A stretch of DNA of 32,000 nucleotides from Mycobacterium leprae TN. GTDB lineage: Bacteria > Actinomycetota > Actinomycetes > Mycobacteriales > Mycobacteriaceae. The notes under the pieces are model-generated. The model worked only from the letters and a program-made list of their open reading frames with translations, ran no database searches and had not been told where the DNA came from. The stretch covers positions 720,001 through 752,000 of the forward strand of contig NC_002677.1 of the NCBI RefSeq assembly GCF_000195855.1. The letters are read 5' to 3'. The translations under genes were made by a program, and so were the position numbers. Shown here piece by piece: positions 1 to 28,064 of this stretch; the first letter of the stretch is position 1; each line of letters starts with the position of its first letter.

Positions 1-448
1 TGGCGGACTGGTCGATGCTGATGGTTGGACCGAGAGCAGTGGTGCCACCATGTCGATCGCGTTTGCCAGCCGGGAGCTGCTCGAAGACGTCAGGCAACTT
101 GCTATCGGTTGCGGGCTATACCCCGACGGGGCGCTCGTTGAGCGAACACGGAGTGCAACCTGCAGGGACGGTCGCATCGTCACGAGCACGAGTTGGCGGT
201 TGCGGATTCAGGGCAGTCTCGACCGAGTAGGTACTCGTACACCTGGCAAGCGAGGGAAACCGGTGAGCAACAAGGGGAGAAGACAGCGGTATGTTGCTGC
301 CGCTGGGCTTAATTTCTCGTCATTGTCCACCGATACCGTCGGCTTCGCACGTTTGAAGAGTAAGACGCTGGTGGGCGAGAAGCCCACCTACGACATCCAG
401 GTTGTGGGTTTGGAGAATTTCGTTGCAAACGGGATCGTGGCGCACAAC
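1..448 (+). mobile_element. C-terminal portion of an intein inserted in sufB, including a LAGLIDADG-type homing-endonuclease block and the C-terminal splice junction
   Basis: GGLVDADGW at 2-28 is a LAGLIDADG-like motif. Intein block F/G-like PTYDIQVVGLENFVANGIVAHN ends in His-Asn (443-448), followed by a +1 Ser (449-451) and then canonical SufB sequence. Confidence 0.88.
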
Positions 449-1297
449 AGCTTCATTTATGTCCCGCCGGGTGTGCACGTTGATATCCCGCTGCAAGCCT
501 ATTTCCGGATCAATACCGAGAACATGGGTCAGTTCGAGCGGACGTTGATCATCGCCGATACGGGCTCGTACGTGCATTACGTTGAGGGTTGTACCGCACC
601 AATCTACAAGTCGGACTCGCTGCACTCCGCGGTGGTCGAAATCATCGTGAAACCGCATGCTCGCGTTCGCTATACGACCATCCAGAACTGGTCGAACAAC
701 GTCTACAACTTAGTCACCAAGCGCGCCCGTGTTGAAACGGGTGCCACCATGGAGTGGATCGACGGCAACATCGGGTCTAAGGTCACCATGAAGTACCCGG
801 CGGTTTGGATGACCGGTGAACACGCCAAAGGTGAGGTGTTGTCAGTGGCGTTCGCTGGTGAAGGCCAGCACCAGGATACCGGGGCCAAGATGCTGCACCT
901 GGCGTCGAACACGTCGAGTAATATTGTGTCCAAGTCGGTGGCCCGAGGTGGGGGCCGCACCTCCTACCGTGGTCTGGTGCAGGTTAATAAAGGTGCACAC
1001 GGGTCGCGCTCCAGCGTAAAATGCGATGCGCTGCTGGTTGATACGATCAGCCGCAGTGACACGTATCCGTACGTCGATATCCGCGAAGACGACGTCACGA
1101 TGGGCCATGAGGCCACCGTCTCGAAGGTCAGCGAGAACCAGTTGTTCTACTTGATGAGCCGTGGGTTGGCCGAGGATGAGGCAATGGCGATGGTGGTGCG
1201 CGGCTTCGTCGAGCCGATAGCCAAGGAGCTACCGATGGAGTACGCGCTGGAACTCAACCGATTGATCGAATTGCAGATGGAGGGTGCGGTCGGATGA
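1..1297 (+). CDS. sufB: SufB Fe-S cluster assembly protein, 3' part (5' end is upstream of the window). The reading frame runs through the intein C-terminal part (2-448), then the C-extein (449-1297).
   Basis: The frame is open from position 2. The C-extein SFIYVPPGVHVDIPLQAYFRINTENMGQFERTLIIADTGSYVHYVEGCTAP...MEYALELNRLIELQMEGAVG is typical SufB. The stop overlaps the sufD start (ATGA at 1294-1297). The ATG at 50 in the ORF track is an internal Met, not a start. Confidence 0.93.
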   Translation, partial: GGLVDADGWTESSGATMSIAFASRELLEDVRQLAIGCGLYPDGALVERTRSATCRDGRIVTSTSWRLRIQGSLDRVGTRTPGKRGKPVSNKGRRQRYVAAAGLNFSSLSTDTVGFARLKSKTLVGEKPTYDIQVVGLENFVANGIVAHNSFIYVPPGVHVDIPLQAYFRINTENMGQFERTLIIADTGSYVHYVEGCTAPIYKSDSLHSAVVEIIVKPHARVRYTTIQNWSNNVYNLVTKRARVETGATMEWIDGNIGSKVTMKYPAVWMTGEHAKGEVLSVAFAGEGQHQDTGAKMLHLASNTSSNIVSKSVARGGGRTSYRGLVQVNKGAHGSRSSVKCDALLVDTISRSDTYPYVDIREDDVTMGHEATVSKVSENQLFYLMSRGLAEDEAMAMVVRGFVEPIAKELPMEYALELNRLIELQMEGAVG

Positions 1298-2468
1298 CCG
1301 CTGTTGAAGGATCTTCACTTACAGCATTGAATAAGGGGAGGTTGTTCGCGTCGTTTGATGTCGACGCTTTCGAAGTGCCCGGTGGCCGTGACGAGATTTG
1401 GCGGTTTACGCCGCTGCGGAGGTTGCGCGGCCTACACGACGGCTCGGCCGTGGCCAATGGCAAGGTGCATATTAGAGTCAGCCAGCAGTCTGGTGTGCAG
1501 ACCGAGATCGTGGGCCGTGGCGACGGACGGCTGGGGCAGGGCGGCATCCCCACTGATCGTGTTGCAGCCCAGGCATTTTCGTCGTTCCAGTCCGCGACGG
1601 TGGTCACTGTCGGGCGGGATATGCAGATCGCTACCCCGATCAACATCGCCGTAACCGGGCCCGACAAAGGCGCAGTGGTGTACGGTCATCTACAGATCAG
1701 GGTCTGCAAATTTGGCGAAGCTGTCGTGGTCATTGACCACCGGGGGAGTGGAACTTACGCCGACAACGTCGAGTTCATTGTCGAGGCCGCCGCACGGCTC
1801 ACCGTGGTGTGGATTGCTGACTGGGCCGACGATATGGTTCATCTCAGCGCACATCATGCCCTGCTGGGCAAAGATGCGGTGCTGCGGCATATCACTGTCA
1901 CACTGGGTGGCGAGGTCGTCCGGGTGTCGGCCAATGTACGGTTCTCCGGGCCCGGTGGCGATGCCGAGCTGCTGGGTTTGTACTTCGCCGACGACGGGCA
2001 GCACCTCGAGTCCCGGCTGCTGGTCGATCACGCTCATCCCGACTGCAAATCGAATGTGCTGTACAAAGGTGCACTGCAAGGAGATCCGGTCTCGTCACGG
2101 CCAGATGCTCATACCGTTTGGGTCGGGGACGTGTTGATTCACCCCGAGGCGACTGGCACCGACACCTTCGAGGTGAACCGTAATCTGGTGCTCACCAACG
2201 GTGTGCGTGCCGACTCGGTGCCCAACTTGGAGATTGAGACTGATGAAATTGTTGGTGCCGGACATGCCAGCGCTACCGGACGTTTTGACGATGAACAGCT
2301 GTTTTATCTGCGTTCCCGTGGCATTGGTGAAGAGCAAGCCCGCCGGCTGCTGGTCCGCGGCTTTTTCGGCGAAATTATCTCCAAGATCGCGGTGCCCCAG
2401 GTGCGGGAGCGGCTGATCGCAGCTATCGAACACGAACTGACCATCACGGAATCGAGATCAACAGCCTC

Positions 2469-2472
<4 letters not shown>
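1294..2472 (+). CDS. sufD: SufD Fe-S cluster assembly protein
   Basis: 392-aa ORF between sufB and sufC with ATGA overlaps at both ends. SufB/SufD-family C-terminus (GHASATGRFDDEQLFYLRSRGIGEEQARRLLVRGF). Confidence 0.9.
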
Positions 2473-4978
<2,506 letters not shown>

Positions 4979-5004
<26 letters not shown>

Positions 5005-8640: not shown

Positions 8641-10569
8641 GGCCTTTAAAGCCACTGGCCCACTGCTCACTGCATAGCTAAGCAATACAAGCTCAGTAAC
8701 CCGATTGAGCGTCTTAGCCAGCATAGTTGGTGTCGAATCAGTGCAACCCCCAAAGCAACCCGCAAACACGCGGGCCCCACCCTTGCTGGTGATCTCACGC
8801 ACGATCCCCGCCCCCACCCAACCCAAACGAACGGTTAACGATCGATCACATCAACTCACAACACTGCAACACACCGCCACCCTTTACTCCACCCCCACAA
8901 CAGAACATGCACACAAAGTACAATTCAACAATCTTGCAGATCCGTCTTTTCCGCGTAGGCCAACCACTCCAACGTCACAGACTTAGACTGGAGCCCGGTT
9001 CAAGTACTAGCGGGGATATAGGTTAAATCTAGATGGGGGCGGACGCTAACGTGCTGGTGTCTTCATCACCAGTATCGGACTAACTGGGACCTGACGGTTG
9101 GATAGTTGCGAGCGTATCCGCCGTCACTGGTCCAACCAGCTCAACTGCTCCAGCTGCATTTTGGCGATCGGGATTGGTGCACGCTTGCGGTTATGGTGGC
9201 AACTCTCATCACGGTACTGAGCGTACCGCCGTTTGGAGTCATATTGGCGATCGATTCGCTTGTCGTGCGATTGGGGCCGACACCGTGGCCGAGGTAGAGG
9301 TCAACGCTGCAGCCAGTTCTTTGGTGAGTGTCGGGCGGTGCTGGTCGGGCCGGCGTTGGTGGGTCTGACGCTAAAACTGGTGGGCATATACTGGACTTTG
9401 TCCTGTCGGCGGTCGCCTGCGCCTTGGGGCTGGTGCGGCGCTGCTGATTGTGGTTCCACTCGTTTATGACGGATCCTGGGCCGAGTAACGGACCAGCGTC
9501 GCGGACTCGTGGCTGATCGGCGCGAGCCGACCTGAACACGGTCGGAGGCGGGGTCCATGCGACCCTCGCAACTTCTCGGCCACTGCTGTCACCCCACTGT
9601 TAGTCGTCAACATTACAGTGCTTGGTGTTTGGTACGTTGCGAGCGCTTCGGTGGCCCATGGGTTGAGGCTCGGGCAGAGGGTGTCACGATAGTCATGACA
9701 CTCTTCGGTGCCGGTGGGCCTGGTAAGGTGGGCTTGCGCTGCTATCCATTGTCGAGTTACGCCGTTTGGCACGTGTCCTTGGCCGGGCCACTTAATAATT
9801 AGATTTGGTGGTTACGCTGATGGCGATCGGGGAGGTTGTTGTGCCCGCGGCTGGCTTGGCGTTGGCTGCCTGTGTGGGGTTAGTCGGCGCTGTAGCGTAT
9901 GTTCCACCGGCACCGACGTTAGTGCAGTGTTGCCGTCGCTGCTGAAGCGATGGTGCCCGCCACGGCCAACCTGCGAAGCCTCGCCGGGGAGACCCGGTGA
10001 TCGGTTCTACATGATCGCTGCGGGCGTGGCCGACGACACCGTTAATGGCCGCTGATTGGCCACGTTGGGGCTTGATGTTTAGGTTCGACGAGATCGTCTT
10101 GCTGCATGACGTGCCGTGCTCGGCAACCGTGACAGCGCGGGGACCTTGATCTGATCGCTGTGGATCGCGAGTCGTTCCAGCGGGGACGGCATGTCGGGTA
10201 ATAGACTCGCGCAACGTTTTGTCATATCTGGGTGATGGTCGTGATATGAAGGCTTAGTTGGTGAAACGGTGTGTAGTCGATGGCCTGGTTAATGGTCTAA
10301 CGTTGTTTGCTGAGTCAATTTCAGTGACGTTGACAGATTTCAATGTGTGAGCGGTGATGCCGACCTACACTGGTTTTCCTAGTTGTTTTTCGATCGTGTG
10401 CCCTGTTGCGAGAAGCCTGACATGGGCTGAAGAATTTGGCGGGGAGGTCGATAACGGTCCTTACACCACGTCGGTACTCGCGGGTGCTACCCGGCATGGG
10501 CTCCGCTGACTGTTCGCCTTAGCCCCCAAGGATCTTATGAAAGAAACTGTTTCAGAGCCTGGCCAAGTC

Positions 10570-11670
10570 CTACTGCGCAATGTGGTCAATAAGAACTATA
10601 GAGATGATCCTGCGAGGAACCCAATGTGTGCTCAATCGTGGTAAGCCAGGCTGCGTAGTAGACAACAGGATATTTTCGTGGTCATACGGATGTCTCCGCA
10701 ACTGGATCGCCTTCTGTGCGATATGCTAGCTCTACCAGACGATCTACAGCTTCGTACGTGATGCGATGACTGGGTCGCGGGTGCTGTCGGCGATCGACAT
10801 CGCAGCGTAGAGGTTCATGCTGTGGGCCAATGCCAGCGAAATGTACATGTCCGAAGTACGCTGGAGGCGTGTCTGGAACTTATTGAATTTTATGCCGAAT
10901 TGCTTGCGAGTCTTAAGGGAATAGGTGGTCAGACAAAGCAACTTCCTCCATCGCACCGATAGTTTCGGCGCATAGCGACGACTGGATACGGATTATGGCG
11001 TCGTGTATGGCAGGAGAGGAGTCTTGCACCTGAGCGGTGTTGGCCGAGAGGCTAGGTTGAGGTGGATTCTAGTTGGATCTGATCGCCGCGCTGACTGTCG
11101 AACGTTTGCTAGGAATGTCTACTTACGGTACTAACGCTGATTAGGAACAACCCGGTGCTGCTGTCTGGCAACGCGGCGCTGGCCACCAGCTTGTCGGTGC
11201 AGTCATGGGTCAAGATCGGGTTCTTCACCGCTCAATTTCTATGAATAACATTGCTGTACAACATGAATAGCGGCATTATCGGTAGACTTTCGGTAATCGG
11301 TCTCAAGGTGAGTGAACGCAAGTAGTTTTTGGCTCGCCGCGACCTCGTTCAGCAGTTGCCGCTGTGGGTCATTGCCAAGTTCGGCGATCAGTGCTCCAGG
11401 TGCTAGTGTGCGGTATGCACCAACGGTTCGGGCGCCAACCACAGCCCGATGTCAGTGAGCATAACCATGATTTCGATCTGGCCTTCCTAAGATTGGTAGA
11501 AGCCCTAGCCGGGGTATACCGACCTCGGGCGAGCTGATTCCGGACATCACGGCTCCAACTAAGCTCGGTATCGATAACTTTGTTGCAGCTCTAAGATCAT
11601 AGTTGCACGAAAGTAGATCACGGGTGGTCTTGATGAGCAGAAGCTGTTCGTTGTTCAATTGAAAGTCCAT
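10570..11670 (-). pseudogene. Acyl-CoA dehydrogenase relic (downstream member of a tandem pair)
   Basis: N-terminus MDFQLNNEQLLLIKTTRDLL (ATG at 11670). C-terminal domain pieces FQTRLQRTSDMYISLALAHSMNLYAAMSIAD and AIQL...THWVPRRIIS lie in shifted frames with stops. Confidence 0.6.
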
Positions 11671-11674
11671 GGAT

Positions 11675-12840
11675 TCTTTGCAATCCGAGAATGTTTGACG
11701 CGATGACATTGCGCTGTACTTCGTTGCTGTCGCCGTAGATCGATGTCTTCCAGTAGTTGAGTATAGCGCGAGGCGTTGGACTGCTCTCCCAGTCGAGGGA
11801 GGCGATATTTTGGCCGCAGTCGGTCTACAATGCATAGGGTCCGGCCACCTAGACCAGGAGTTCGGTCGTCACTTGTTGCACTTGGCTGTCGCGCAGCTCG
11901 AGTACCGATGACGCCGGGTTAGGCTTGCCGTCCGCAGAGGTCTGAGACCACCTGTGCTTTAGGGATTTCCAGAGCCGGAACAGTATTTTCCTACTTAGCT
12001 ACTCGCGCCGTGAACAACGGATCTCCCAACAAATCGGTCTGTTTGGCGTGCTTTTCATCTCGGCGAAGTGCACTTTGATCCTGCTAACAGCGGCTATGTC
12101 GATGCGCTTATTACTGAGCAGGAATTTTGCGTAAACCTAGCCTTGGTTCTATTGTCCAACAAGCTAATCCGGTACTCGAACGTCGGAGAAAACACCTTGT
12201 TGACTTCGTGGCCCTCATCGATCGTCTTGACCGGCCGGAAAGATCATGCTTGGTGTGGCTATGTTTATGAGTAAAAAATGAGATGTTAGAATAACATTTG
12301 AGTACTTGCGAGTCGGTACGCATCGTGCAGAAGATCTAGTCCGCGTACTAGGCTGAGTGTTGTCCACGTCTTTTGTCCATTGACGACGTAGCTGCTGCCG
12401 TCGCCCACCACGGTTGTGCGCAGTGAGGCAAGGTTGGAGTCGACTTCAGGCTCCGGCACTCCTGGTATCACCAGATATCGATGCTGACGGTCAGCGGCAG
12501 AAAGCGCTGTTTGAGTTTCTGGGATCCGAATTCGGCGATCACCGGGCCAACCATCTTGGTGTTGAAGTTCCGTGGTGCTGGGCACATGCCAACTGCATCT
12601 CGTCAGGTCCAGATCTGGTGCTGGGTGGGTGTTCAGTTCTTGCTGCCCCACTTAACCGACCAATTCGGTACTGTGAACTCGTGATCGTTGAGAATCTTCT
12701 GGCTGGTGACGATCTGGTTGTGGCTCGTCGCGGAGCCCTGGCGCATCAGCGCGTGGATCCCGTCAGGGATCTGCGTAGGTGTAGAAATGTGATGAGCTGG
12801 CCACGCAAAGTGGCTTGATTAGTGGTCAATGCCAGTTTCA
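11675..12840 (-). pseudogene. Acyl-CoA dehydrogenase relic (upstream member of a tandem pair)
   Basis: MKLALTTNQATLRGQLITFL (ATG at 12840). Further pieces: MVGPVIAEFGSQKLKQRFLP, the middle domain DSNLASLRTTVVGDGSSYVVNGQKTWTT, and the C-terminus YLNYWKTSIYGDSNEVQRNVIASNILGL abutting the next gene's ATG. Multiple frameshifts and stops. Confidence 0.6.
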
Positions 12841-12959: not shown

Positions 12960-13900
12960 TGGTTAATCTACAGGTGCGAGCCGCGGCAGTGTTGGTCGCG
13001 ATCAGTATTGTCGCCACCCCGCTTACTGTCGGCTCATGCGAACAGAATTTCCCCACTCAGCAACTGCATTGGTGGTTGGTGGCTGTTTCGCATACCGATT
13101 TGCTCGCTAACGCTGATGCGATCGAAGACGCTGACACTCCCTAATTCCTTGCTTCCCCGCCGGGTTCCCGACGCATCCAATGGCACGGGCTGGATAGCCA
13201 GGGCCACAGTCCGCGCCGATTCCAGACGTGCTGGCGCCATCGCATTAGCGGTGGTGGTGCCCTCGCGGTGTTGATCACTGTGTTCACCTCGATGCTGGAC
13301 CGGCTTGCATCGGTGATGTCAGCGAAGCTCCCCGGTAGAAAAGGTTGTGTCGGTAACCCCTAGAGCGTTCACACGTACGGGTGCCGGACAGCCAGCTGGT
13401 CCTGATCGGCCGGTGGTGGTTCAGCGTGGTTGGTCTGGTGCATACCTCTGGGCTAGTCATGCTGGTGCCTGACGTGTGGATCGTCGATGCGGGGCAGAGT
13501 CTGTGGGCGGTGCGGACACCATCGGGTTGCACATGGCTCGTTCGCTGGGCGACGGAGGGCAGATCGTTGTTGGGTTGGTCTCTCTTCGGGCAGCCGAGAG
13601 TGCTAAGCAGCTTGATGATCTCGGGCTCAGCCACGCCACTGGAATCAGGGCTGTCATCGGGATCGGTCATGTAGAAGGCGAATGAGATGCTTGACCACAA
13701 TACCGCGACCGTGCAGCAGCTGGACGCTCGGTTCGGGGTAGGACTGGTCTCCGTCGTAGTGATTGTGGCCTGGCGGCAGGCCAACGGCAAGTTCATTTGC
13801 GTTTGTTTACCAGCTCGTCGGTGTTGATGGCGTCGGTTCGGCGCGGCTAGAGGAGGGCCTATGTGCTCTGGTCCGTGTTTGACGCCTGTGTGCCACCTCG
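12960..13900 (+). pseudogene. Possible ComEA-like (helix-hairpin-helix DNA-binding) relic; positional equivalent of Rv2415c
   Basis: Supported only by position upstream of the comEC relic and by a weak HhH-like stretch, GLVSLRAAESAKQLDDLGLSHATGIRAVI (~13570-13660). No long frame survives. Confidence 0.3.
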
Positions 13901-13959: not shown

Positions 13960-15140
13960 AGGTGGGTCGTGACTGCTGTTGGTATGCTATGGCTGATCTA
14001 CTAAACTTAACCGCGTGGCTTCGGCTAATCAGCACCGGCCTGGTGGCGATCGGTATGGTTGGTGTGGAGTGTGGGCTAACGACCGCATTGCGTGCAAACA
14101 CGGTGAGTCAGCACCCGATTATCGCAGTTTTCGGAACACGCTTCGGTGATGGTCATCCCCAAGGAAAGTGCGGTGTCGGTGGGCCCAGGTGGTCAGCACC
14201 GGCTCATGTTTCGCGCGACCCTATAGGCTTCGCGCCGAAGAGATGTCGGGCCAGGTAAGTGGCTTTCGCGCCGGACATCGGACTTTCGGCTCGCAAACCG
14301 CCCTCGAAACCAACACAGTGATGGTTGGCCAGCCGGTGTGGTTCGCTGCGAGTAGCACCCGCCTGGCCAGCTATGATCTGATCTGACGGTGGCGGTCCTT
14401 AACGCTACAGGCATTACGCACTTGACGGCGGTATCCGGGGACAACGTGACGGTCGTGTGCGCGGCGGTGCTGTTCTCGGTCCGGCTGATTGGCCCGCGCG
14501 TGGCCGTGGTGTTCGTGGCAGTGGCACTGTTGGCCTTTGTGATCATCGAACAGCCCACAGCCAGCGTGCTGCGTGCGGCGCCATCGTGTTGTCACGGCAT
14601 ACTGTCTTCGCTTTGGCGATAAACGATTCCCACGCTGTTCGCCACTGCGTTGGTCTTGTTAGCCGTTGTTCCTTCACCTGGCCGTTGACGTGAACTTCGG
14701 GCTGTCCGTGCTGGCCAAGGCCCTACTGGTAGTCATCGCGCAAGTCTGGTTACGGCACTTGGTCGCGCGGAGGTGCCCCGAGTCGCTAACCGATGCCCTG
14801 GCCGTCGTGTGGGCCACGTACGTGGTTACCGCTCCACTGGTGCTGGCGTCTTGGCCCGGTTCAGCCTTGTTACCGCTGCCGCCAATCTCGCGGTGGTGGC
14901 TGTGATAATAGCACCGATTACCGTGGTGGCTGTGTTATGCGGCCTGTGTGCCTGCGGCAATCGTTCCCGGTCCGGCTAGTGCCCTCGGCGTGCTGCTGCT
15001 GGTGTTGGTCCTGTGGCGGTGCTTTCGGGTGGCGATGATTTCAGCACTGATGGTCGCCGTTGCGTGCTTGCCTGATTGGTTGTCAGGGTTCCTGACCGGC
15101 GGGCTTATCGCGGGCTCGTCGGCTCGTCGTGCCACCATCT
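13960..15140 (+). pseudogene. comEC: ComEC/Rec2-like competence membrane channel relic (Rv2414c type)
   Basis: Competence-domain stretch GITHLTAVSGDNVTVVCAAVLFSVRLIGPRVAVVFVAVALLAFVIIEQPTASVLRAA (14389-14580). Later TM pieces SLTDALAVVWATYVVTAPLVLAS and [22 protein letters not shown] lie in other frames. Several stops. Confidence 0.6.
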
Positions 15141-15145
15141 ACGGA

Positions 15146-16414: not shown

Positions 16415-16548
16415 GCGTTAAATTCCTTTGTCGATTTAGGCGCGAGTGCTCTTCTACTCTACGGCGACAAACTTTTAGAGTACCAGTCGGCTACGCTTTC
16501 TCACAAAAGCACAACTTTGTGCTGCTGGAACGGACAATTTGAGGCAGC
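16415..16548. promoter_or_regulatory. Divergent control region between rpsT and the ATP-grasp cassette, with back-to-back -10-like hexamers and a palindrome
   Basis: TACTCTA (16455-16461) and TAGAGTA (16476-16482) are exact reverse complements 14 nt apart. Each presents TAGAGT (TANNNT-type -10) toward its own gene. Palindrome AGCACAA-CT-TTGTGCT lies at 16508-16523. GAGG at 16541-16544 precedes the ATG at 16549. Confidence 0.35.
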
Positions 16549-18234
16549 ATGTCTCAGGTGAGTCTTCCCAGCCAGCTCAAGGAGACTGGACCACGGTTGC
16601 AGTCTCGTTGCCGGTCCTCCGCCCGGTCTGAGCGCATTTTCGGTGGGTACAACACCTCGGACATCTATTCAATGGCCTTTGACGAAATGTTCGATGTTCA
16701 AGGCAATGTTCGTGGTCCGTACAAGGGCATCTACGCTGAGCTGGCGCCGTCGGATGCGTCCGAGCTGAAAGCTCGCGCCGAAGCGTTGGCTCGCGCATTC
16801 ATAGATCAGGGTATCACGTTTTCGCTGTCGGGTCAGGAGCGGCCCTTTCCGCTGGACTTGGTGCCGCGTGTGATCTCGGCATCCGAGTGGAGCCGATTGG
16901 AGCGGGGTATCACCCAGCGCGTCAAGGCTCTTGAGATGTACCTAGACGACATCTATGGCGATCAGGAAATCCTGCGCGACGGCGTCATCCCGCGCCGCTT
17001 GATTACCTCGTGTGAGCACTTTCACCGCCAGGCGGTTGGTATTATCCCACCCAACGGCGTGCGCATCCACGTCGCGGGCATCGACTTGATTCGCGATGAC
17101 AGCGGCAATTTCCGGGTGCTCGAGGACAATCTTCGCTCGCCGTCCGGGGTGTCGTATGTGATGGAGAACCGGCGCACCATAGCGCGGGTTTTCCCGAATC
17201 TTTTTGCCACCCATCGGGTGCGAGCGGTCGACGACTACGCCTCGCATTTGCTGAGGGCGCTGCGTAACTCGGCAGCCACCAATGAGGCAGACCCGACGGT
17301 GGTGGTGTTGACTCCGGGGGTGGCCAACGCGGCTTACTTCGAGCACTCGTTACTAGCCCGCCAGATGGGTGTCGAGTTGGTCGAAGGACGTGATCTGTTC
17401 TGTCGCGACAACCAAGTATACATGTGTACCACCGAGGGGGAGCGCCAGGTCGATGTCATTTATCGGCGTATCGATGACGCTTTTCTAGACCCGTTGCAAT
17501 TCCGTGCTGATTCTGTACTGGGGGTGGCCGGATTGGTGAACGCTGCGCGCGCGGGCAACGTCGTCATCTCGAGTGCGATAGGAAACGGTGTTGGCGACGA
17601 CAAACTCGTGTACACCTACGTGCCTACCATGATGGAGTACTACTTACGGGAAAAGCCGTTGCTGGCGAATGTCGATACTTTGCGCTGCTGGCTGGATGAC
17701 GAACGCCAAGAAGTGCTTGACCGGATCCACGACCTAGTTCTCAAGCCGGTTGAAGGTTCCGGCGGTTACGGAATCGTTTTTGGTCCCGATGCCTCCGAGA
17801 AAGAGCTCGCTGCTGCCAGTAAAAAGATTCGCGACGATCCCCGAAGTTGGATCGCGCAACCAGTGATGGAACTCTCGACTGTGCCGACCCAGGTTGGTAG
17901 TACGCTGGCGCCGCGTTATGTCGACCTGCGGCCGTTCGCAGTCAACGACGGCAACGACGTGTGGGTGCTGCCGGGTGGACTTACTCGTGTTGCGCTGGTC
18001 GAAGGTTCGCGGGTGGTCAACTCCAGTCAGGGCGGTGGCTCCAAGGACACCTGGGTGCTGGCGCCGCATGCGTCGTATGGCGCACGTGAGCTGGGCGCCG
18101 CTGAAATCGTGTGTTCATTGCCGCAGTCGTCGCCCGACCCAGTGCCCGACGGATCGCCGCGACCAAAACAACAGCCGCAGCAAGCGCAAGCCGAGCAAGC
18201 GCAGCAACCGCAACAGCAGATAATGTTGCCCTGA
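16549..18234 (+). CDS. Circularly permuted ATP-grasp (type 2) family protein, predicted amidoligase (Rv2411c type)
   Basis: 561 aa. Family-typical blocks: VVLTPGVANAAYFEHSLLARQMGVELVEGRDLF, VDVIYRRIDDAFLDP, GNVVISSAIGNGVGDDKLVYTYVP, LVLKPVEGSGGYGIVFGP. Q/P-rich C-terminal tail. The stop overlaps the next start (TGATG 18232-18236). Confidence 0.85.
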   Translation: MSQVSLPSQLKETGPRLQSRCRSSARSERIFGGYNTSDIYSMAFDEMFDVQGNVRGPYKGIYAELAPSDASELKARAEALARAFIDQGITFSLSGQERPFPLDLVPRVISASEWSRLERGITQRVKALEMYLDDIYGDQEILRDGVIPRRLITSCEHFHRQAVGIIPPNGVRIHVAGIDLIRDDSGNFRVLEDNLRSPSGVSYVMENRRTIARVFPNLFATHRVRAVDDYASHLLRALRNSAATNEADPTVVVLTPGVANAAYFEHSLLARQMGVELVEGRDLFCRDNQVYMCTTEGERQVDVIYRRIDDAFLDPLQFRADSVLGVAGLVNAARAGNVVISSAIGNGVGDDKLVYTYVPTMMEYYLREKPLLANVDTLRCWLDDERQEVLDRIHDLVLKPVEGSGGYGIVFGPDASEKELAAASKKIRDDPRSWIAQPVMELSTVPTQVGSTLAPRYVDLRPFAVNDGNDVWVLPGGLTRVALVEGSRVVNSSQGGGSKDTWVLAPHASYGARELGAAEIVCSLPQSSPDPVPDGSPRPKQQPQQAQAEQAQQPQQQIMLP

Positions 18235-19211
18235 TGCTTGCCCGTAACGCCGAGGCGCTCTATTGGATCGGTCGCTACGTCGAACGTGCCGACGACACCG
18301 CGCGCATTCTCGACGTCGTTGTGCACCAATTGTTGGAAGATTCCAGCGTTGATCCCGACCACGCCTCGAGGACGTTGCTGCGGGTGCTCGGCATCGAGCT
18401 CCCGGACCACGAGTTGGACGTCTGGTCGCTGACCGATCTGGTGGCGTTCAGTACCAATGCTCAGGGCGGCTCTTCGATCGTCGATGCGATCTCGGCGGCG
18501 CGGGAAAACGCAAAATCGGCACGGGAAGTGACATCCAGTGAAACCTGGGAATGTCTCAACACCACATACCATGCTCTCGCCGAACGCGAACGCGCCGCTA
18601 AACGCCTTGGTCCACACGAATTTTTGTCTTTCATCGAGGGTCGGGCGGCGATGTTCGCCGGCCTGGCTGACTCGACGCTTTCGCGTGACGACGGATACCG
18701 CTTCATGCTGCTGGGCCGCGCTATAGAGCGGGTCGACATGACGGTGCGACTGTTGTTGTCCCGGGTGGGAGATAGCGCGTCGTCACCGGCATGGGTGACG
18801 CTGCTACGCTCGGCTGGTGGGCATGACACCTATCTGCGCACCTACCGCGGTGTGTTGGATGCAGCCCGGGTGGTCGAATTCATGCTGCTCGACCGGCTGT
18901 TTCCACGTTCGATTTTTTACTCGCTGAAGTTGGCCGAACACAACCTTGACGAGTTGTTGCGCAATCCGCAGAGCCGAGTTGGTGCCACAACGGAAGCGCA
19001 GCGGTTACTCGGGCAGGCCCGCAGCGAACTGGAATTCGTGCAACCCGGTGTGCTGCTGAAGACACTGGACAGCCGCTTGGCTAGCCTGCAGACCACTTGC
19101 AGGGATGTTGGAGACGCATTGGTGTTGCAGTATTTTCACGTCGCGCCGTGGGTAGCGTGGTCGGATGCCGGCCACCGGGGACGAATGGTTGGCAAGCGGG
19201 GAGAAGCCTGA
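18234..19211 (+). CDS. Alpha-E domain protein (Rv2410c type)
   Basis: 325 aa from ATG 18234: MLARNAEALYWIGRYVERADDTARILDV... is the characteristic alpha-E N-terminus. The ORF-track start at 18111 would overlap the upstream gene by 124 nt and is rejected. The stop overlaps the next start (TGATG 19209-19213). Confidence 0.8.
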   Translation: MLARNAEALYWIGRYVERADDTARILDVVVHQLLEDSSVDPDHASRTLLRVLGIELPDHELDVWSLTDLVAFSTNAQGGSSIVDAISAARENAKSAREVTSSETWECLNTTYHALAERERAAKRLGPHEFLSFIEGRAAMFAGLADSTLSRDDGYRFMLLGRAIERVDMTVRLLLSRVGDSASSPAWVTLLRSAGGHDTYLRTYRGVLDAARVVEFMLLDRLFPRSIFYSLKLAEHNLDELLRNPQSRVGATTEAQRLLGQARSELEFVQPGVLLKTLDSRLASLQTTCRDVGDALVLQYFHVAPWVAWSDAGHRGRMVGKRGEA

Positions 19212-20050
19212 TGTGGCGGATGCGGGTGGTGCACAGCACCGGATACGTGTACGAATCGCCGGCGACCGCCTCCTTCAACGAAGCCCGGCTGACGCCGCGA
19301 TCTAATACACGGCAAACCGTCATCCTCAATCGTGTCGAAACCATTCCGGCCACTCGGTCCTATCGCTACATCGATTATTGGGGTACCGTGGTGACAGCGT
19401 TTGACTTGCGCGCGCCGCACACCGAGCTGACAGTGACGTCTTCGTCGGTTGTCGAGACTGAAAGCCTTGAACCATCGGTGAGCCGGATCACCTGGACTGA
19501 ACTGCAGTCGATGGCCGTAATAGACCGATTTGACGAAGTTTTGCAGCCCACCGCATACACCCCGGTAAACACTCGTGTAGCGGCCGTCGGCAAGCGGATC
19601 GCCAAGAATCACGAACCTCGGAAAGCCGTCGTCGCCGCAGCCCGGTGGGCGCGAAGTAAGCTGGACTACATTCCAGGCACTACCGGTGTGCATTCGTCCG
19701 GTTTGGACGCACTGCACCAGTGTAGGGGAGTCTGTCAGGACTTCGCGCATCTGACGTTGATTGTGTTGCGCAGCATGGGAATTCCCGGTCGCTATGTGTC
19801 AGGGTATCTGCACCCCAAACGCGACGCGGTCGTCGGAAAGACGGTTGAAGGACGCAGTCACGCCTGGATTCAGGCCTGGACGGGTGGGTGGTGGAATTAC
19901 GATCCCACCAATGACGTTGAAATCACCGAACAATACATCAGCGTAGGTGTGGGGCGCGATTACACAGACGTGGCCCCGTTGAAGGGAATCTACTCTGGTC
20001 GGGGGGCAACCGACCTTGACGTGGTTGTGGAGATCACTCGGTTGGCTTAG
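19211..20050 (+). CDS. Transglutaminase-like cysteine peptidase-fold protein with bacterial transglutaminase N-terminal domain (Rv2409c type)
   Basis: 279 aa from ATG 19211 (MWRMRVVHSTGYVYESP...). Cys-His-Asp triad contexts are intact: RGVCQDFAH (Cys codon 19733-19735), RSHAWIQAW (His 19859-19861), NYDPTN (Asp 19901-19903). Confidence 0.85.
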   Translation: MWRMRVVHSTGYVYESPATASFNEARLTPRSNTRQTVILNRVETIPATRSYRYIDYWGTVVTAFDLRAPHTELTVTSSSVVETESLEPSVSRITWTELQSMAVIDRFDEVLQPTAYTPVNTRVAAVGKRIAKNHEPRKAVVAAARWARSKLDYIPGTTGVHSSGLDALHQCRGVCQDFAHLTLIVLRSMGIPGRYVSGYLHPKRDAVVGKTVEGRSHAWIQAWTGGWWNYDPTNDVEITEQYISVGVGRDYTDVAPLKGIYSGRGATDLDVVVEITRLA

Positions 20051-20099: not shown

Positions 20100-20480
20100 A
20101 AGGCGCTGCGGAGTCGACTTATGCCCGGTCGGGGACTGGCCTGCATGGGGTGGCTGTTCGGTGGACTTGCTCTCGGCGTCGCGCTGGGCTGCGTGATCCC
20201 ATTGTCCTACGGGTCGATAGCTGGGGTTGCGGTCATACGCTTTTGCCGAACCCAATCGTGGTGCAAGCTATAGCCACTAGTACGTTTGCGTCCTCGGCGC
20301 CGCTGGCGCTTTACGCGGCTATGGTCAGTATCCGGTTGTGTCAGTTGGGTAGCGACCGCGTCTGCCGCCGTGATAGCGTTAACTGGCGGTGTCTTGACTG
20401 CCGGCGCATTGGTGCTGACCGGATTGTTGGTCTACCCGCTGTCGCAACTGGAGGTCAACGCGGACATTGCGCTGGTTCGG
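20100..20480 (-). pseudogene. Possible PE-family gene relic (positional equivalent of Rv2408/PE24)
   Basis: The minus-strand stretch STNAPAVKTPPVNAITAADAVATQLTQ weakly resembles the PE-domain core (ANAAAA.PTT.V.AAAADEVS...). Position matches. Heavily decayed. Confidence 0.25.
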
Positions 20481-20765
20481 GCGAGTTCGTTGCTGATATC
20501 TCTTTCTGGTTGGCAGCCCAGGGCACCTGGTGGTGTTGGGTTTGCTGGTCGCCAGTATGGCGTACCCAGCCTAATGCGGGGTCTCATGCCCAGATCATTT
20601 GGTATGTACAGGCTTGGCGCTCGCCGCAGAAACAACACTGGTGTTGATCTGGCCGACTGCCGGGTGCGGATTTACTGTCGGTCGTACGCGTCGCTGCGTT
20701 GTTCCGGCTGATAGAGGTCGGCACGCTATGGATGCTTGCCAACCCCGATTCGGTGTAGGTCGTTG

Positions 20766-21563
20766 TCAAACTTGATTTGCCAGTTGAACCTGGACACGGT
20801 CAGCTCTCGTCACCGTTTCTCTTTCCCTAGGGACATAGTACGTTATGACCAGGATGCCTATGCCCGCGTGCGCCGCGGTTGCTGTCGCTTGCTCGATTGA
20901 CGAGTGGGGGTTGCAGATGTCCTTGATCTGCTTGTTGGTGAACGCGGATGACGATGTTCTTGCGGATTATGGTGTGCACCAATGCGTCGGCCTCGGCGGC
21001 AAGCTCGTCCAGGCTGGCGCAGGGAACCGTGCCTCCGGTCAGCACCACCGAGGTCGGTCCGGATTCGATCCGGAATCCGATCGTCGGCGTCACAGGCCCG
21101 TGATTCGTGGAACCCCGGATCGACACGCCATCGGGGGGGGCTCCAACAAAACCTTTGGTGTATTCGTATACTTCGATCAGTGGGGGCGTATTCAGGTAAG
21201 TGTGATGGGTGATCTGATATTCGATGTCGTGACCGGACGCCTTCAGCTTTGCCTCTACCGTTTCAGCGGTGTCCGGAGATCCGATGATCGGCAGCGGTGG
21301 GGGATCCAGCGCGAAGGTGGTTACCCAATGCGTGATGAGCAGATCGCCAAGGTCGCTGATGCGGTCGCCGTGCAGATGAGTTGAGCAGCAGCGCTGACAA
21401 ACAGCTGGCGTGTGCGTCGGACCAGCCGACGCACGTTGCAACACTCCAAGCCAGCAGTCCACTAGGAACAGCTGTCTGCCAGCTTGCACCGCGTCGAGAA
21501 GGCCGGCGCGGGTCGGGTCGGGAATAGGGGACTTCCGGTGCTGAGCAGTGTGGTCTCGATCAT
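20766..21563 (-). pseudogene. rnz: Ribonuclease Z / metallo-beta-lactamase-fold relic (Rv2407 type)
   Basis: [12 protein letters not shown] (ATG at 21563) is followed by a frameshift. The 220-aa main frame reads [30 protein letters not shown]...[27 protein letters not shown] second frameshift precedes the ...[12 protein letters not shown] tail. The zinc motif HxHxDH reads HLHGDR (21361-21378). Confidence 0.7.
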
Positions 21564-21777: not shown

Positions 21778-22039
21778 ATGCAGATCGCGGGCGTCTTACG
21801 GAGCAAGGGTGCGACGGTGGTGACGATCAATCGTGACGCGAATGTTCGGGAACGGATCGGCCGGTCTTGTCGAGCAGAACATCGGTGCCATGGTGGGGTC
21901 GGCATCGGTGTCGGAGCGTAACATCGTACGTCAGCTTCATGCGTATGGCGTCAGCGTGCTGTCTTGCCCGATCTCCAAGATTATGACTAGCGTTGGTTGC
22001 CAGCTGCCGCTGGTCCTGTCCTATATCACTCAAGGTTAA
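21778..22039 (+). pseudogene. CBS-domain protein relic (Rv2406c type) with a frameshift and internal deletion
   Basis: ATG 21778 with GGAGG upstream: MQIAGVLRSKGATVVTINRDANV. After a frameshift: LVEQNIGAMVG..VSERNIVRQLHAYGVSVLSCPISKIMTS. This joins almost directly to the C-terminal ..LSYITQG stop. Only ~87 codons remain for a two-CBS protein. Confidence 0.7.
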
Positions 22040-22060
22040 CTGCGCGGCTCAGCGCCAGGA

Positions 22061-22640
22061 TTAGTCGGCACGCAGCGGGCTGGCTATGGCATCGAAGATT
22101 TCACGTTTCAAGATCGTGTCCTCGTGGCGAATACTCTCCTCCGGCACGTCGAACACCCGGTCTAGCCGGATCCAGCTTTCTCGGTTTTCGTAATCCCAAC
22201 TGCTAGAGGCCGATGCCAACCCAATCTTGGTAGGCTGCGTGGCGTTCTTGGCTGGACACCATCAGTCCCAATACAATATTGTTGTTGCGGCTCACGACGA
22301 GGACCGGTCAGTCTTGGCTCCGGGTCGGGTCGTCCTCATATGGAGGACCCACTTCCACGCGATTTTGCAGGATTAGCTCGGCCATCCAGGTCAGGGGGGC
22401 GTAGAGTAGCTCACGGGTTCGCTGCGCGGTGGGGGAGGGGAACTAAGCGCTTGCCACTGGCCGGCCCGCGGTAATCGCGACAGGTGGTTTTGGCGCAGCT
22501 GCGGCTATACACATTCACGGTGACTTTGATTTCATGCTGGAGTTCCCGCAGCACGGCTTGCGAATTCTGCACGTGACGGGAGAGGTGTGGAGTCCGGCTT
22601 AATACCATGTTCTTGGTTCTTGGCAAGCCGTTGTAATGTT
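22061..22640 (-). pseudogene. Conserved hypothetical gene relic (positional equivalent of Rv2405)
   Basis: Minus-strand pieces YEDDPTRSQD.PVLVVSRNNNIVLGLMVSSQERHAAYQDWVGIG and ...REIFDAIASPLRAD-stop (stop at 22061-22063) lie in different frames with stops. The family was not recognised with confidence. Confidence 0.4.
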
Positions 22641-22715
22641 TTCCACTATGACTGCCAGGCTGACGCCATATTCGCAGTATAGGACCGAAAGGCCCGGCGA
22701 GATTGCTGTGCCAGT

Positions 22716-24713: not shown

Positions 24714-26714
24714 TCAATATTTAAGCGTGCATACTCTTGGCGCATTCGGGTGCTGTAACATCCCCGCGTTGTCGGCTTCCTTGTCGGCGCGGATCACATG
24801 GACCACTTCGTTTATCAACGCCAGACGGGTGAACGCCTCCGGGGAGTTGTCCAGGTGCCGCCCGGTGCGTGGCTCGATTTCTTCAGCGTAGAGGTGCAGT
24901 GGGCTCGTGTAGGAAAACAGTCGCTTAGCGCAGGTTACCTCACCGATTTCCACCAGCGCGGACACCAGCCAGAATGATTAAATGGTGAGCATGTTTTCTT
25001 CGCCGGATAACCCTTAATTGGTTTCTTTTATCCGGTATCGCAGCACTAGACTCTCTTCGGTGAGTTAATTGGCGACAGCCAGCCCAGTGTTAAGCACGCG
25101 CGGGTCGTCAGGTGCCAGGAATCTGGTCAGTAGCACTAGCAACAGTGAGGAATCCAACGCGTCGTTGCCATACCGCTGGGTGAATACGTCGCGGTAGTCC
25201 ATCCCATGCTCGAGAATCTCGGTCTTGATCTCTTCAGCGATGGCCAGTCACTGTTGGGTGCGTTTTTCTTACCCTACCGTTCGGTTAGCTTGGCCTCGCG
25301 GTCCAGAGCCATCCAACACATCGTCCCAACACATCGTGAAGTGTTGCGGCTCGCCGCGAATCTCCCAGATTCCGCGGTCGGGCTCACACCAGTGCGCGAT
25401 CACCTCTTTCACCTGCTTTTTCAATACTGGCTACAATATTTCTGAGATTTTCTCGAGCGACTTGGTGTGCAGAAGAACGAGTCCAGAATCCAGCCCTAGA
25501 TATCGTGCTGAACTTGGTCGTAGGAGTCGTTTGCCGATTCGCACCGGCCGCGCGTGGTCGTAGCCGAACAGATGATATAATCCGTCTTCAACCAGGCGGC
25601 GTTCGTCGCCTACCATCACCTGCAGCAGATGGCGCTGGTCGTTATTGGCGCCGGATACATTGACGATGTATGCGGAGAAGTCGTCGGTTTCGTGGTCGAG
25701 TCCCAGGGTGTAAAGCCCCCCACAACGCGAACGTTGAATCGCTCACCCAGGTATCGTGGTACTCCCAGTTGCGTTCGCTTTGTGACGTTTCCGGAAGTGA
25801 CTTAGTGCTGCCGGGCCGTTAGCCAGCGCGCCGGTGGGAGGATACGGGAACCTGTTGAGTGTTAGCGTGCTGTATTACAGGTATGCCCGCGACGGGTGGT
25901 CGGGGAAGTGGCCGATGTTGATCCACTGCCGCCAGCATTGGGTGACCTGTCACATCTTGTCTGCTGCTTCTACATAGGTCTGTGGGACCGGGTGTTTGGT
26001 CCAGCTTAGCGTGACGAACACGTCGTCGCCCTATTTCATCCGGATGCGTGCCCGTGTTTTACGGATCTCCAACCTGATCTGCATATTCATATTGGTGGTT
26101 AACCATGGCGCCGGGTGGATGTCAGGTTGTTTGCTGGCATGTGTGATGGCTTCGCCGTAGGCATGGGTCAAGTATTCTCACACGGCGCCGATGCGATGGT
26201 AGTCAAACGCCGGCTCGCAGCTCATCATCAGCTCAACGGTGCCGCTTATGCAGAGCACCGTGCACAGCAGGATGTGCTTGGCGTCCTAATCCATCGTGAT
26301 GCGTTAGTGATCGGCGCTCGATGTCATGGCCATGTCCCCCATAACCGGCACGTTCCGCACGATTAACCATCCGGTGTGTGGTCTGCCATGTGGTTTCCAT
26401 GATCAAGCTGCTGGGAAATAGCGGCGGGTCGACGGTACCGAGGCCGCCGTAGGGGCCCAATCGGAAATGGCCGGCGCTTGTTAGTCCAGGATCGCTTCGA
26501 ACACACTCGGAGAGTCAGGCTGGGGCAGCCTATACTCCATAGACATTCCACCGAAACGGCCGACGAGATCAGGCACGTCGTTTCCTAGTCGGACAAGAAA
26601 TGCGTAGTCAGCGATCGACGGAAACGGGTTGCGTAGCACGCCGCTGGAGGCAACTAGCGCCTGCGAGTTGAAATCGAAAGGCGCGGGTTTGGCGGCTTGG
26701 GCTGCGGTAAACAC
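24714..26714 (-). pseudogene. Glycoside hydrolase family 15 (glucoamylase-like) relic (Rv2402 type)
   Basis: N-terminal piece PFPSIADYAFLVRLGNDVPDLVGRFGGMSMEYRLPQPDSPSVFEAILD (26481-26714). C-terminal piece LHLYAEEIEPRTGRHLDNSPEAFTRLALINEVVHVI (24714-24965). No continuous frame lies between them. Confidence 0.65.
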
Positions 26715-26869
26715 TGCTAGCCGCAGCAGCCTTGTCGTCGGCTTTGGCGGGTTGATAGGAGGGGGGCGGCGTGCAGGACCATTCCGCCATAATCTGTCGA
26801 TTCTTCCTGGTGTCCATCGTTTGCTTCTTTGCCCGAGGGGTTGTGGTCTCTACCCGGCGTGCCTGGCGT

Positions 26870-27798
26870 ACTTAGGCATGTTGTTCGGATAACAGGCCAA
26901 TCGCGACCAGGTAACCGACGAACCGTCGCAATGCCAGTGTTCGGCTCACCATCCGAGCCTTTTGCGGTGGTGTTTGGTCACTGCTGTCCACCGCGACAGC
27001 GATGATGTTGTCATGGATAACCCGGTGTGCCGCCTACAGGATAGTCGTCGGAATCCAGTGGCGTAGCTGTACTCGAACTAGCTGCCAGGTTGACACGCGT
27101 TCCGTACACAGAGGACAGGTCAGCCGGGGAGCGGCCGCTACCACTAGGTTTATGCCTACGCTGGCCACCGCGGCATCACGTGCGCAGCGTCGTTTATGTA
27201 AATGATGGCGGTGATTTATGTATGTATTATTATGTAGTCGCCGCTGTCGATCGTGATCGTAGTGTGCCCCGCGTGAGTATATCGGCCAGGCCGAACGGGT
27301 CGTTGGGCCGGCGAGGCAATCGGAACCACCACACGTTCATCGGAGCGCCGAAGCTACGCGGTGTCAGTGCTATTGCTGAGCGCATGGTCGACGGGGCGGC
27401 CATCGCAGGCCACCGCTAAGTCGGTGCGTATGATCACTTAGGTCACCGCGGTGCTGCACATAAGTCGGAACGTGGGCTCCATCTCGGCACCGGCAGCCAT
27501 TATCTCCAGAAAGTTCCACTGCGGCTACCAGGATGATGCGTTGATGTGTGCCGAGCAGGCGGCTCAGGTCCAGATTGACTCACTTGCCCTGTATCTCCAT
27601 CTGGATGGTGTCGATTTTGCGATGCAGAATTTGTGCGAATAGGTGGGTCACAGATCGAGTTCGTCAAGTAGCCACAAGGTGCTTGCGGGCCATGGCAATC
27701 GGATCGCTGGCCAAAAGCAGGCCAAGCATCATGCTCGCCGGTCCGCCTCCAGCAATGAGGCATGTAGTTTTGTCGGATGTGGAAGGCACGGACAGCAT
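26870..27798 (-). pseudogene. FAD-dependent monooxygenase (UbiH/PheA-type) relic
   Basis: Minus strand from ATG 27798: MLSVPSTSDKTTCLIAGGGPASMMLGLLLA (dinucleotide-binding GxGxxG). Later pieces: HRKIDTIQMEIQGK..DLSRLLGTHQRIILVA, FGAPMNVWWFRLPRRPNDPFG, NDAAHVM (GDAAH motif) and a C-terminal LALRRFVGYLVAIGLLSEQH. The pieces lie in shifted frames with stops and deletions. Confidence 0.6.
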
Positions 27799-27860
27799 TG
27801 GGCGATCTTGACACAGTGTTTTACGATGCGGGGACGGCGAATGGGACGAATGGGATTAGT

Positions 27861-28064
27861 GTGAGCCCGGTGAACGGGTTCCTGAATTGGTGGGACAGCA
27901 TCGAGCTTTGGCTGTCAGGGCTCGCCTTCGTGTTACAGGCGGCTTTGGTTATGCCGGTTGTCCTTGCGTTTGCCTACGGCACCGCATTAGTGTTAGATTT
28001 CGCGCTCGGTAAGGGCATCCAGTTGATGCGTCGAGCCTATCACCCTGATTCGGCGCGCGGGTAA
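27861..28064 (+). CDS. Small hypothetical membrane protein (67 aa from GTG 27861; start uncertain)
   Basis: An intact frame in an otherwise decayed region. Hydrophobic core IELWLSGLAFVLQAALVMPVVLAFAYGTALVLDFAL is followed by the basic tail GKGIQLMRRAYHPDSARG. The ORF-track ATG at 27777 would overlap the divergent monooxygenase relic start. Confidence 0.4.
   Translation: MSPVNGFLNWWDSIELWLSGLAFVLQAALVMPVVLAFAYGTALVLDFALGKGIQLMRRAYHPDSARG

Follow-up and report, generated by a model that had tools for sequence, protein, structure and literature searches.

ML0605–ML0607 of Mycobacterium leprae, the core of the Anbu operon without Anbu

The families COG2308, COG2307 and COG1305 are the usual operon partners of Anbu, a proteasome β-like N-terminal nucleophile (Ntn) hydrolase (Valas & Bourne 2008, PMC3235984), and the Anbu operon has since been treated by Fuchs et al. 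2017 (PMC5666114) and Piasecka et al. 2018 (PMC6376114). According to PMC5666114, PMC6376114 and PMC3495828, which cite it, the work of Iyer et al. 2009 predicts a peptide-ligase system, with a transglutaminase-like (TGL) enzyme reversing the peptide tags that an ATP-grasp enzyme adds. Here we analyse a cassette of three genes, ML0605, ML0606 and ML0607, at positions 16549–20050 of a 32,000-nucleotide stretch of Mycobacterium leprae TN DNA (contig NC_002677.1, positions 720,001 to 752,000; hereafter the window). The cassette corresponds to the established core of the Anbu operon, minus Anbu itself, and it is already known and annotated. An initial annotation, made from the letters of the window, had put it forward as the best candidate in the window for an undescribed biochemical system; this is not borne out, since the neighbourhood has been described since 2008–2009 and the M. 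leprae proteins already carry family names at NCBI ("circularly permuted type 2 ATP-grasp protein", "alpha-E domain-containing protein" and "transglutaminase family protein").

Three adjacent genes and their protein families

Read directly in the window, the cassette consists of three consecutive open reading frames (ORFs) of 561, 325 and 279 amino acids on the + strand, without a single internal stop and as free of lesions as first described; an exact-sequence look-up identified them as ML0605, ML0606 and ML0607. As determined by Pfam profile searches, ML0605 (16549–18234, +) matches CP_ATPgrasp_1 (2.9e-163) and CP_ATPgrasp_2 (4.6e-160), both at full length, with YheCD besides below threshold, and is a predicted ATP-dependent carboxylate-amine ligase of the circularly permuted ATP-grasp type. 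ML0606 (18234–19211, +), an all-helical protein and predicted partner subunit of the ligase, matches Alpha-E over positions 1–294 of 294 (1.4e-78). ML0607 (19211–20050, +) matches Bact_transglu_N (2.1e-20) and Transglut_core (3.2e-20) and is a predicted thiol peptidase or amidase of the papain fold. These scores are far beyond chance, and the family assignments of the initial annotation were all recovered. An NCBIfam search of the cassette gave no match, nor did PADLOC, which covers known anti-phage defence systems, for any of the three proteins. One reservation concerns the start of ML0605. Its ATG at 16549 lacks conservation, with CATCT standing at that site in most relatives, and translation may in truth begin at a conserved GTG at 16558 (V-S-L-P...). 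The protein would then have 558 amino acids, the length given in the old cosmid annotation u1937b (P0280).

The genes for the ligase, the Alpha-E protein and the TGL protein are adjacent on one strand and in that order in the window, and likewise in an M. tuberculosis-like locus (L081), an M. haemophilum-like locus (L087) and a distant locus (L085). Each junction is a one-nucleotide stop/start overlap, TGATG, at 18232–18236 (ML0605/ML0606, +) and 19209–19213 (ML0606/ML0607, +). The same overlap is found in relatives at about 60 of 74 first junctions and at 76 of 77 second junctions, and that between the ATP-grasp and Alpha-E genes recurs even in the distant locus, whose Alpha-E protein is 36% identical. 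Gene order and this first overlap are thus common to all three of these loci, and the overlapping architecture is ancestral rather than a special survival in M. leprae. Both overlaps lie where they had been placed, but the significance attached to their preservation falls away: being ancestral, they tell nothing special about M. leprae.

In ML0607 the putative catalytic triad is in frame and embedded in matching motifs, with Cys175 (TGT, 19733–35) in GVCQDFAHL, His217 (CAC, 19859–61) in RSHAW and Asp231 (GAT, 19901–03) in NYDPTN, in keeping with the codons named beforehand. The protein aligns to PDB entry 3ISR, deposited as a transglutaminase-like putative cysteine protease, at 1.9e-16 with the triad residues and motifs matched, and more weakly to the protein-glutamine gamma-glutamyltransferase 6G49 (2.6e-07), its only tie to the protein cross-linking transglutaminases (EC 2.3.2.13). 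We consider it quite improbable that ML0607 works mainly alone as a protease, perhaps outside the cell and against proteins of the host. Its paralogue in M. tuberculosis, Rv2569c, is credited with such a role: it is described as belonging to the YebA/COG1305 superfamily, and a study reports that it associates with the cell wall and cleaves E-cadherin (PMC11081392). This cleavage, however, was insensitive to cysteine-protease inhibitors (PMC11081392), a poor fit with a Cys-His-Asp fold. Moreover, the ML0607 gene overlaps in a row with those of two predicted cytoplasmic enzymes, an architecture kept from saprophytes to distant phyla, and the N terminus of the protein (MWRMRVVHSTGYVYESPATA) has no hydrophobic signal-like stretch.

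Among 61 diverse Alpha-E homologues of ML0606, the residues R4, R14, R18, G161, E165 and P224 are invariant and E17, R166 and R172 nearly so; the conserved N-terminal E-R motif of the family is therefore present, with E17 nearly invariant and R14 and R18 invariant. A confident AlphaFold2 model built from the same 61 homologues has 14 helices, with a predicted local distance difference test score (pLDDT) of 92.5 and a predicted template modelling score (pTM) of 0.89. No relative of solved structure was found for it, the best Foldseek match having an E value of 0.77 and the PDB sequence search returning nothing. The invariant residues, mostly arginines together with one glutamate, may form an anion- or carboxylate-binding surface. 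In addition, ATP-grasp and Alpha-E occur in nature joined into single full-length proteins (P0163, 806 amino acids; P0184, 854 amino acids), which argues that the two proteins may work as one unit.

Selection and strain variation

The ratio of non-synonymous to synonymous substitution rates (dN/dS) was determined by the Nei-Gojobori method for M. leprae against 56 other mycobacteria, with lepA, holA and rpsT as controls. The ATP-grasp, Alpha-E and TGL genes gave 0.074, 0.085 and 0.129, and the controls 0.066, 0.111 and 0.103, at a dS against distant mycobacteria of about 0.6–1.1 (0.9–1.1 for the trio) that is near saturation. The comparison with the M. haemophilum-like locus is unsaturated (dS 0.26–0.46) and yielded 0.093 for ML0605, 0.049 for ML0606 and 0.154 for ML0607, with 0.084 for lepA, 0.099 for rpsT, 0.140 for holA and 0.183 for subI. 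M. haemophilum was used here in place of M. lepromatosis, of which no orthologues surfaced in the sequence searches. The strong purifying selection that the initial annotation had argued for is upheld by these data, as the control-like values of 0.05–0.15 are not near 1.

With changes polarised by eight outgroups, 29 non-synonymous and 103 synonymous substitutions in the trio fall on the M. leprae branch, as against 45 and 109 in the controls (Fisher p = 0.18). There is no relaxation on this branch; if anything, the trio is more constrained than the controls. Changes private to M. leprae at otherwise invariant sites are not in excess either, numbering 7, 2 and 5 in the three genes, 12 in lepA and 6 in holA. 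Synonymous changes are about four times as numerous on the M. leprae branch as on that of M. haemophilum (103 versus 24 in the trio, 109 versus 24 in the controls), which points to an M. leprae lineage that is much longer or evolves much faster.

The state of the neighbouring genes was judged by tblastn of 18 proteins of the M. haemophilum-like locus against the window; that locus and the M. tuberculosis-like one are syntenic with it and served as references with intact genes. By this comparison 10 of the 18 syntenic genes are dead, leaving only multi-frame or stop-containing remnants, while holA, rpsT, the trio, lepA, a 67-amino-acid ORF and subI each give a single stop-free full-length match. 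The cassette is accordingly intact amid decayed neighbours, as had been noted.

The reference protein sequences of ML0605, ML0606 and ML0607 are encoded on 147, 178 and 199 public contigs, respectively, and the strain variants found are single missense changes with one exception. In the run-level assembly Logan SRR6241771, a change from AA to AAA at 18328–18329 shifts the frame of ML0606 and splits it into 39 and 275 amino acids (about 2945–2947 in L086; genes 2850–2969 and 3001–3828). This single unverified case may reflect either a genuine allele or a fault of the assembly. The initial annotation had regarded disruptive polymorphisms in other strains as evidence against its claim of selection; on this point the frameshift, seen in one unverified assembly, counts against the claim.

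We think it highly improbable that mere chance or lag, with no selection acting, has preserved the cassette in M. leprae. About half of the neighbouring genes are intact as well, and the ML0606 frameshift in one assembly also speaks for this reading, but neither the dN/dS values of the unsaturated comparison nor the counts on the M. leprae branch are those of unselected genes. Furthermore, dN against M. tuberculosis reaches 0.30 in the rnz pseudogene as opposed to 0.05–0.10 in the trio, and the flanking pseudogenes hold 5–16 stops each, in contrast to the 3.5 kb of the cassette with no lesion. Purifying selection on all three genes, as strong as that on the neighbouring housekeeping genes, is therefore well supported.

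Proposed chemistry and its alternatives

As the most likely mechanism we propose, with moderate confidence, that the ATP-grasp/Alpha-E/TGL operon carries out ATP-dependent amide ligation, with a thiol peptidase or amidase that reverses or processes the product. In this scheme, which draws on the Iyer et al. 2009 prediction as summarised in PMC3495828 and on general ATP-grasp chemistry, ML0605 would convert a carboxylate into an activated acyl-phosphate at the expense of ATP and join it to an amine, yielding an amide or isopeptide bond, for example to an amino-acid or peptide tag. ML0606 would be a tightly associated helical partner, probably binding the substrate or its carboxylate; this role is suggested by its mostly arginine invariant residues and by the fusion to the ligase in some bacteria. 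The thiol triad of ML0607 would hydrolyse or transfer the bond, so that the product is reversed or processed. The one piece of related biochemistry comes from Yersinia bercovieri, whose ATP-grasp homologue releases phosphate from ATP (PMC6376114).

Several observations count against this picture of a selected, jointly acting ligase system, among them the ML0606 frameshift described above and the near-saturated synonymous distances to distant mycobacteria, a weakness from which the M. haemophilum comparison is free. When Anbu served as bait in Y. bercovieri pull-downs, none of the other operon proteins was seen to bind it specifically (PMC6376114), and in the literature searched no substrate, product or complex is defined for any member. 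The model of the P0163 fusion is poor (pLDDT 66.6, pTM 0.48) because the ATP-grasp half of its alignment is shallow, and the docking of the two domains is unreadable in it. Finally, transposon insertions in Rv2411c, the M. tuberculosis ATP-grasp orthologue, were classed as conferring a growth advantage in vitro in a hidden Markov model study (PMC3854130), which implies that cells in culture can do without the function or even pay a price for it.

The closest solved structure to ML0605 is 3N6X (1.4e-146), which we take to come from Methylobacillus flagellatus. Like 3ISR, it is a structural-genomics deposit, and we know of no defined activity for either. The deposit title of 3N6X, "putative glutathionylspermidine synthase", agrees with a different function, namely that the operon makes or recycles a small nitrogen metabolite (for instance a conjugate of the gamma-glutamyl or polyamine type, or else a short peptide) for nitrogen economy instead of tagging proteins, with the TGL protein as the matching amidase. 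We regard this as possible though rather doubtful. It is in line with the behaviour of the proteobacterial operon, which is induced in an NtrC-dependent manner when a preferred nitrogen source is lacking: PP_2688 and PP_2685 of Pseudomonas putida rise by a log2 of 4.0–4.4 on nitrate compared with ammonium (PMC8050072), and two operon genes of Burkholderia cenocepacia change by −8.2 and −9.4 fold in an ntrC-mutant comparison (PMC5491218). On the other hand, the trio has no Pfam glutathionylspermidine-synthase or amidase domain. Rv2411c did not make γ-aminobutyrate (GABA)-trehalose, a result that excludes this one product only. A chromatin immunoprecipitation sequencing (ChIP-seq) table for GlnR of M. 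smegmatis lists no site between MSMEG4501 and MSMEG4635, an interval in which the orthologues of the cassette presumably lie.

The ATP-grasp protein ends in a low-complexity Gln/Pro-rich tail (18109–18231, +), along which conservation of ML0605 drops to 0.6–0.7. A Gln-rich tract is present in every mycobacterial ATP-grasp orthologue examined (about 70 tails compared), with uninterrupted runs of about 3–18 Gln, and is preceded by a conserved RELGAAE(V/I)V.SLP motif (RELGAAEVVRSLP-type); in M. leprae the tract is interrupted (KQQPQQAQAEQAQQPQQQIMLP). Its position beside a transglutaminase-like partner is suggestive. One could imagine that the cassette is a core pathway of mycobacteria for modifying proteins or peptides, with importance in the host, and that the tail is a substrate or regulatory handle for the TGL partner by deamidation or cross-linking of its glutamines, but we hold this to be improbable. 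If true, such a host-relevant pathway would explain the retention of the cassette in the minimal M. leprae genome, and the ligase and amidase would form a self-regulating pair of a kind so far undescribed.

The favoured ligase reading is not tied to the host. Across mycobacteria, slow growers and fast growers alike, Alpha-E proteins are 82–91% identical, genes for close relatives of the ATP-grasp protein lie on 548 genome stretches, and the Alpha-E family comprises 5,063 clusters at 50% identity (E <= 0.001). The cassette is thus genus-wide and present in many phyla, and its function is a general bacterial one, specific neither to pathogens nor to intracellular life. That the function is needed by an obligate intracellular pathogen, as the initial annotation had suggested, does not follow, given the genus-wide conservation, the breadth of the family and the growth-advantage insertions in Rv2411c. 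In M. tuberculosis, Rv2411c has been detected in lysate and the Rv2410c protein by proteomics; literature searches for ML0605, ML0606 and ML0607 by name returned only unrelated catalogue numbers. The three-gene system is among the more widespread bacterial neighbourhoods without a known substrate, and its housekeeping-level constraint amid decay of 10 of 18 genes is an argument to prioritise the orthologues of M. tuberculosis, M. marinum and M. smegmatis in biochemistry and in-host genetics.

Surroundings of the cassette and comparison with known systems

All pseudogenes named in the initial annotation (comEA/comEC, PE, rnz, CBS, the gene at the Rv2405 position and GH15) were confirmed against the M. 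haemophilum-like locus by tblastn. Upstream of the cassette lie two acyl-CoA dehydrogenase pseudogenes (10555–12776) and the remnants of comEA (13040–13879) and comEC (14019–15145). Downstream follow a decayed 216-amino-acid gene at the PE position (20106–20700), rnz (20829–21531), CBS (21778–21994), a PemK-like gene at the Rv2405 position (22052–22669), GH15 with 15 in-frame stops (24738–26732) and a flavin adenine dinucleotide (FAD) monooxygenase (26884–27816), all pseudogenes. The GH15 remnant was located in this way after Pfam searches of its ORF fragments of 96–124 amino acids had found nothing. The intact 67-amino-acid ORF (27861–28061) is 88% identical to its counterpart in the M. haemophilum-like locus. 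In M. interjectum the acyl-CoA dehydrogenase genes adjoin holA (L002 5909–8125 against window 10556–12786) and comEA/comEC are absent there, so this block is variable among mycobacteria. At its beginning the window also holds an intact suf operon (sufB-sufD-sufC-sufS-sufU, 50–5004), three of whose four junctions are four-nucleotide overlaps. Its first ORF has a weak Intein_splicing match (residues 97–133), consistent with the tail end of a SufB intein cut by the window edge. Between 5004 and 10500 there is no ORF of at least 150 amino acids.

The region between rpsT (minus strand) and ML0605 (16415–16548) was aligned with its counterparts in mycobacteria, 45 intergenic regions in all. About 80 nucleotides of it (within 16440–16548) form a block that hardly varies across the genus, and its best reading is the promoter of rpsT on the minus strand, with TTGGGA-N18-TAACCT (relatives) and TTGTGA-N18-TACTCT (M. 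leprae) as candidate elements. Scans for consensus sigma-70 promoters and terminators around the cassette gave none, and no promoter for the cassette itself; Rfam and tRNA scans gave no match. A small conserved stem of the block (TCTCCCAAAAGGGGA) is lost in M. leprae, where a different perfect palindrome, GCACAACTTTGTGC, occurs at 16509–16522. Control by GlnR was also considered, as GTTAT-N6-GTTAC within the block fits the loose AC/T-n9-AC motif; it was rejected because the M. smegmatis ChIP-seq table has no site in the interval named above and because the block reads better as the rpsT promoter.

Among characterised or annotated systems, glutathionylspermidine synthetase/amidase shares little with the cassette: a Pfam scan gave neither a glutathionylspermidine-synthetase nor a CHAP amidase domain, and the label comes only from the title of 3N6X. 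At the level of sequence, 3N6X and 3ISR are homologues of ML0605 and ML0607, respectively. With the tubulin tyrosine ligase-like and RimK-type taggers the trio may share an analogy, the pairing of an ATP-grasp enzyme that attaches amino-acid tags with a peptidase that strips them off (PMC3495828), but it is not a sequence-level member of that group. The Gln-rich tail sets the mycobacterial ATP-grasp proteins apart from the distant homologue, which lacks it.

The nearest counterpart is Rv2411c-Rv2410c-Rv2409c of M. tuberculosis, with identities of 89%, 90% and 82%, lengths of 551, 325 and 279 amino acids, and flanking synteny and overlaps identical to those of M. leprae; comEA, comEC, rnz and CBS are intact there, whereas in M. 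leprae they are pseudogenes. Compared with the four-gene Anbu operon in the strict sense, the M. leprae trio differs in that no Anbu gene follows it, the decayed 216-amino-acid gene and then the rnz pseudogene lying downstream of ML0607. No gene of the M. tuberculosis-like or M. haemophilum-like locus has a proteasome-type Pfam family. The cassette reveals no new kind of system or mechanism: it has the same three families as the Anbu operon, in the same order, joined by the same kind of overlap and with the same predicted chemistry.

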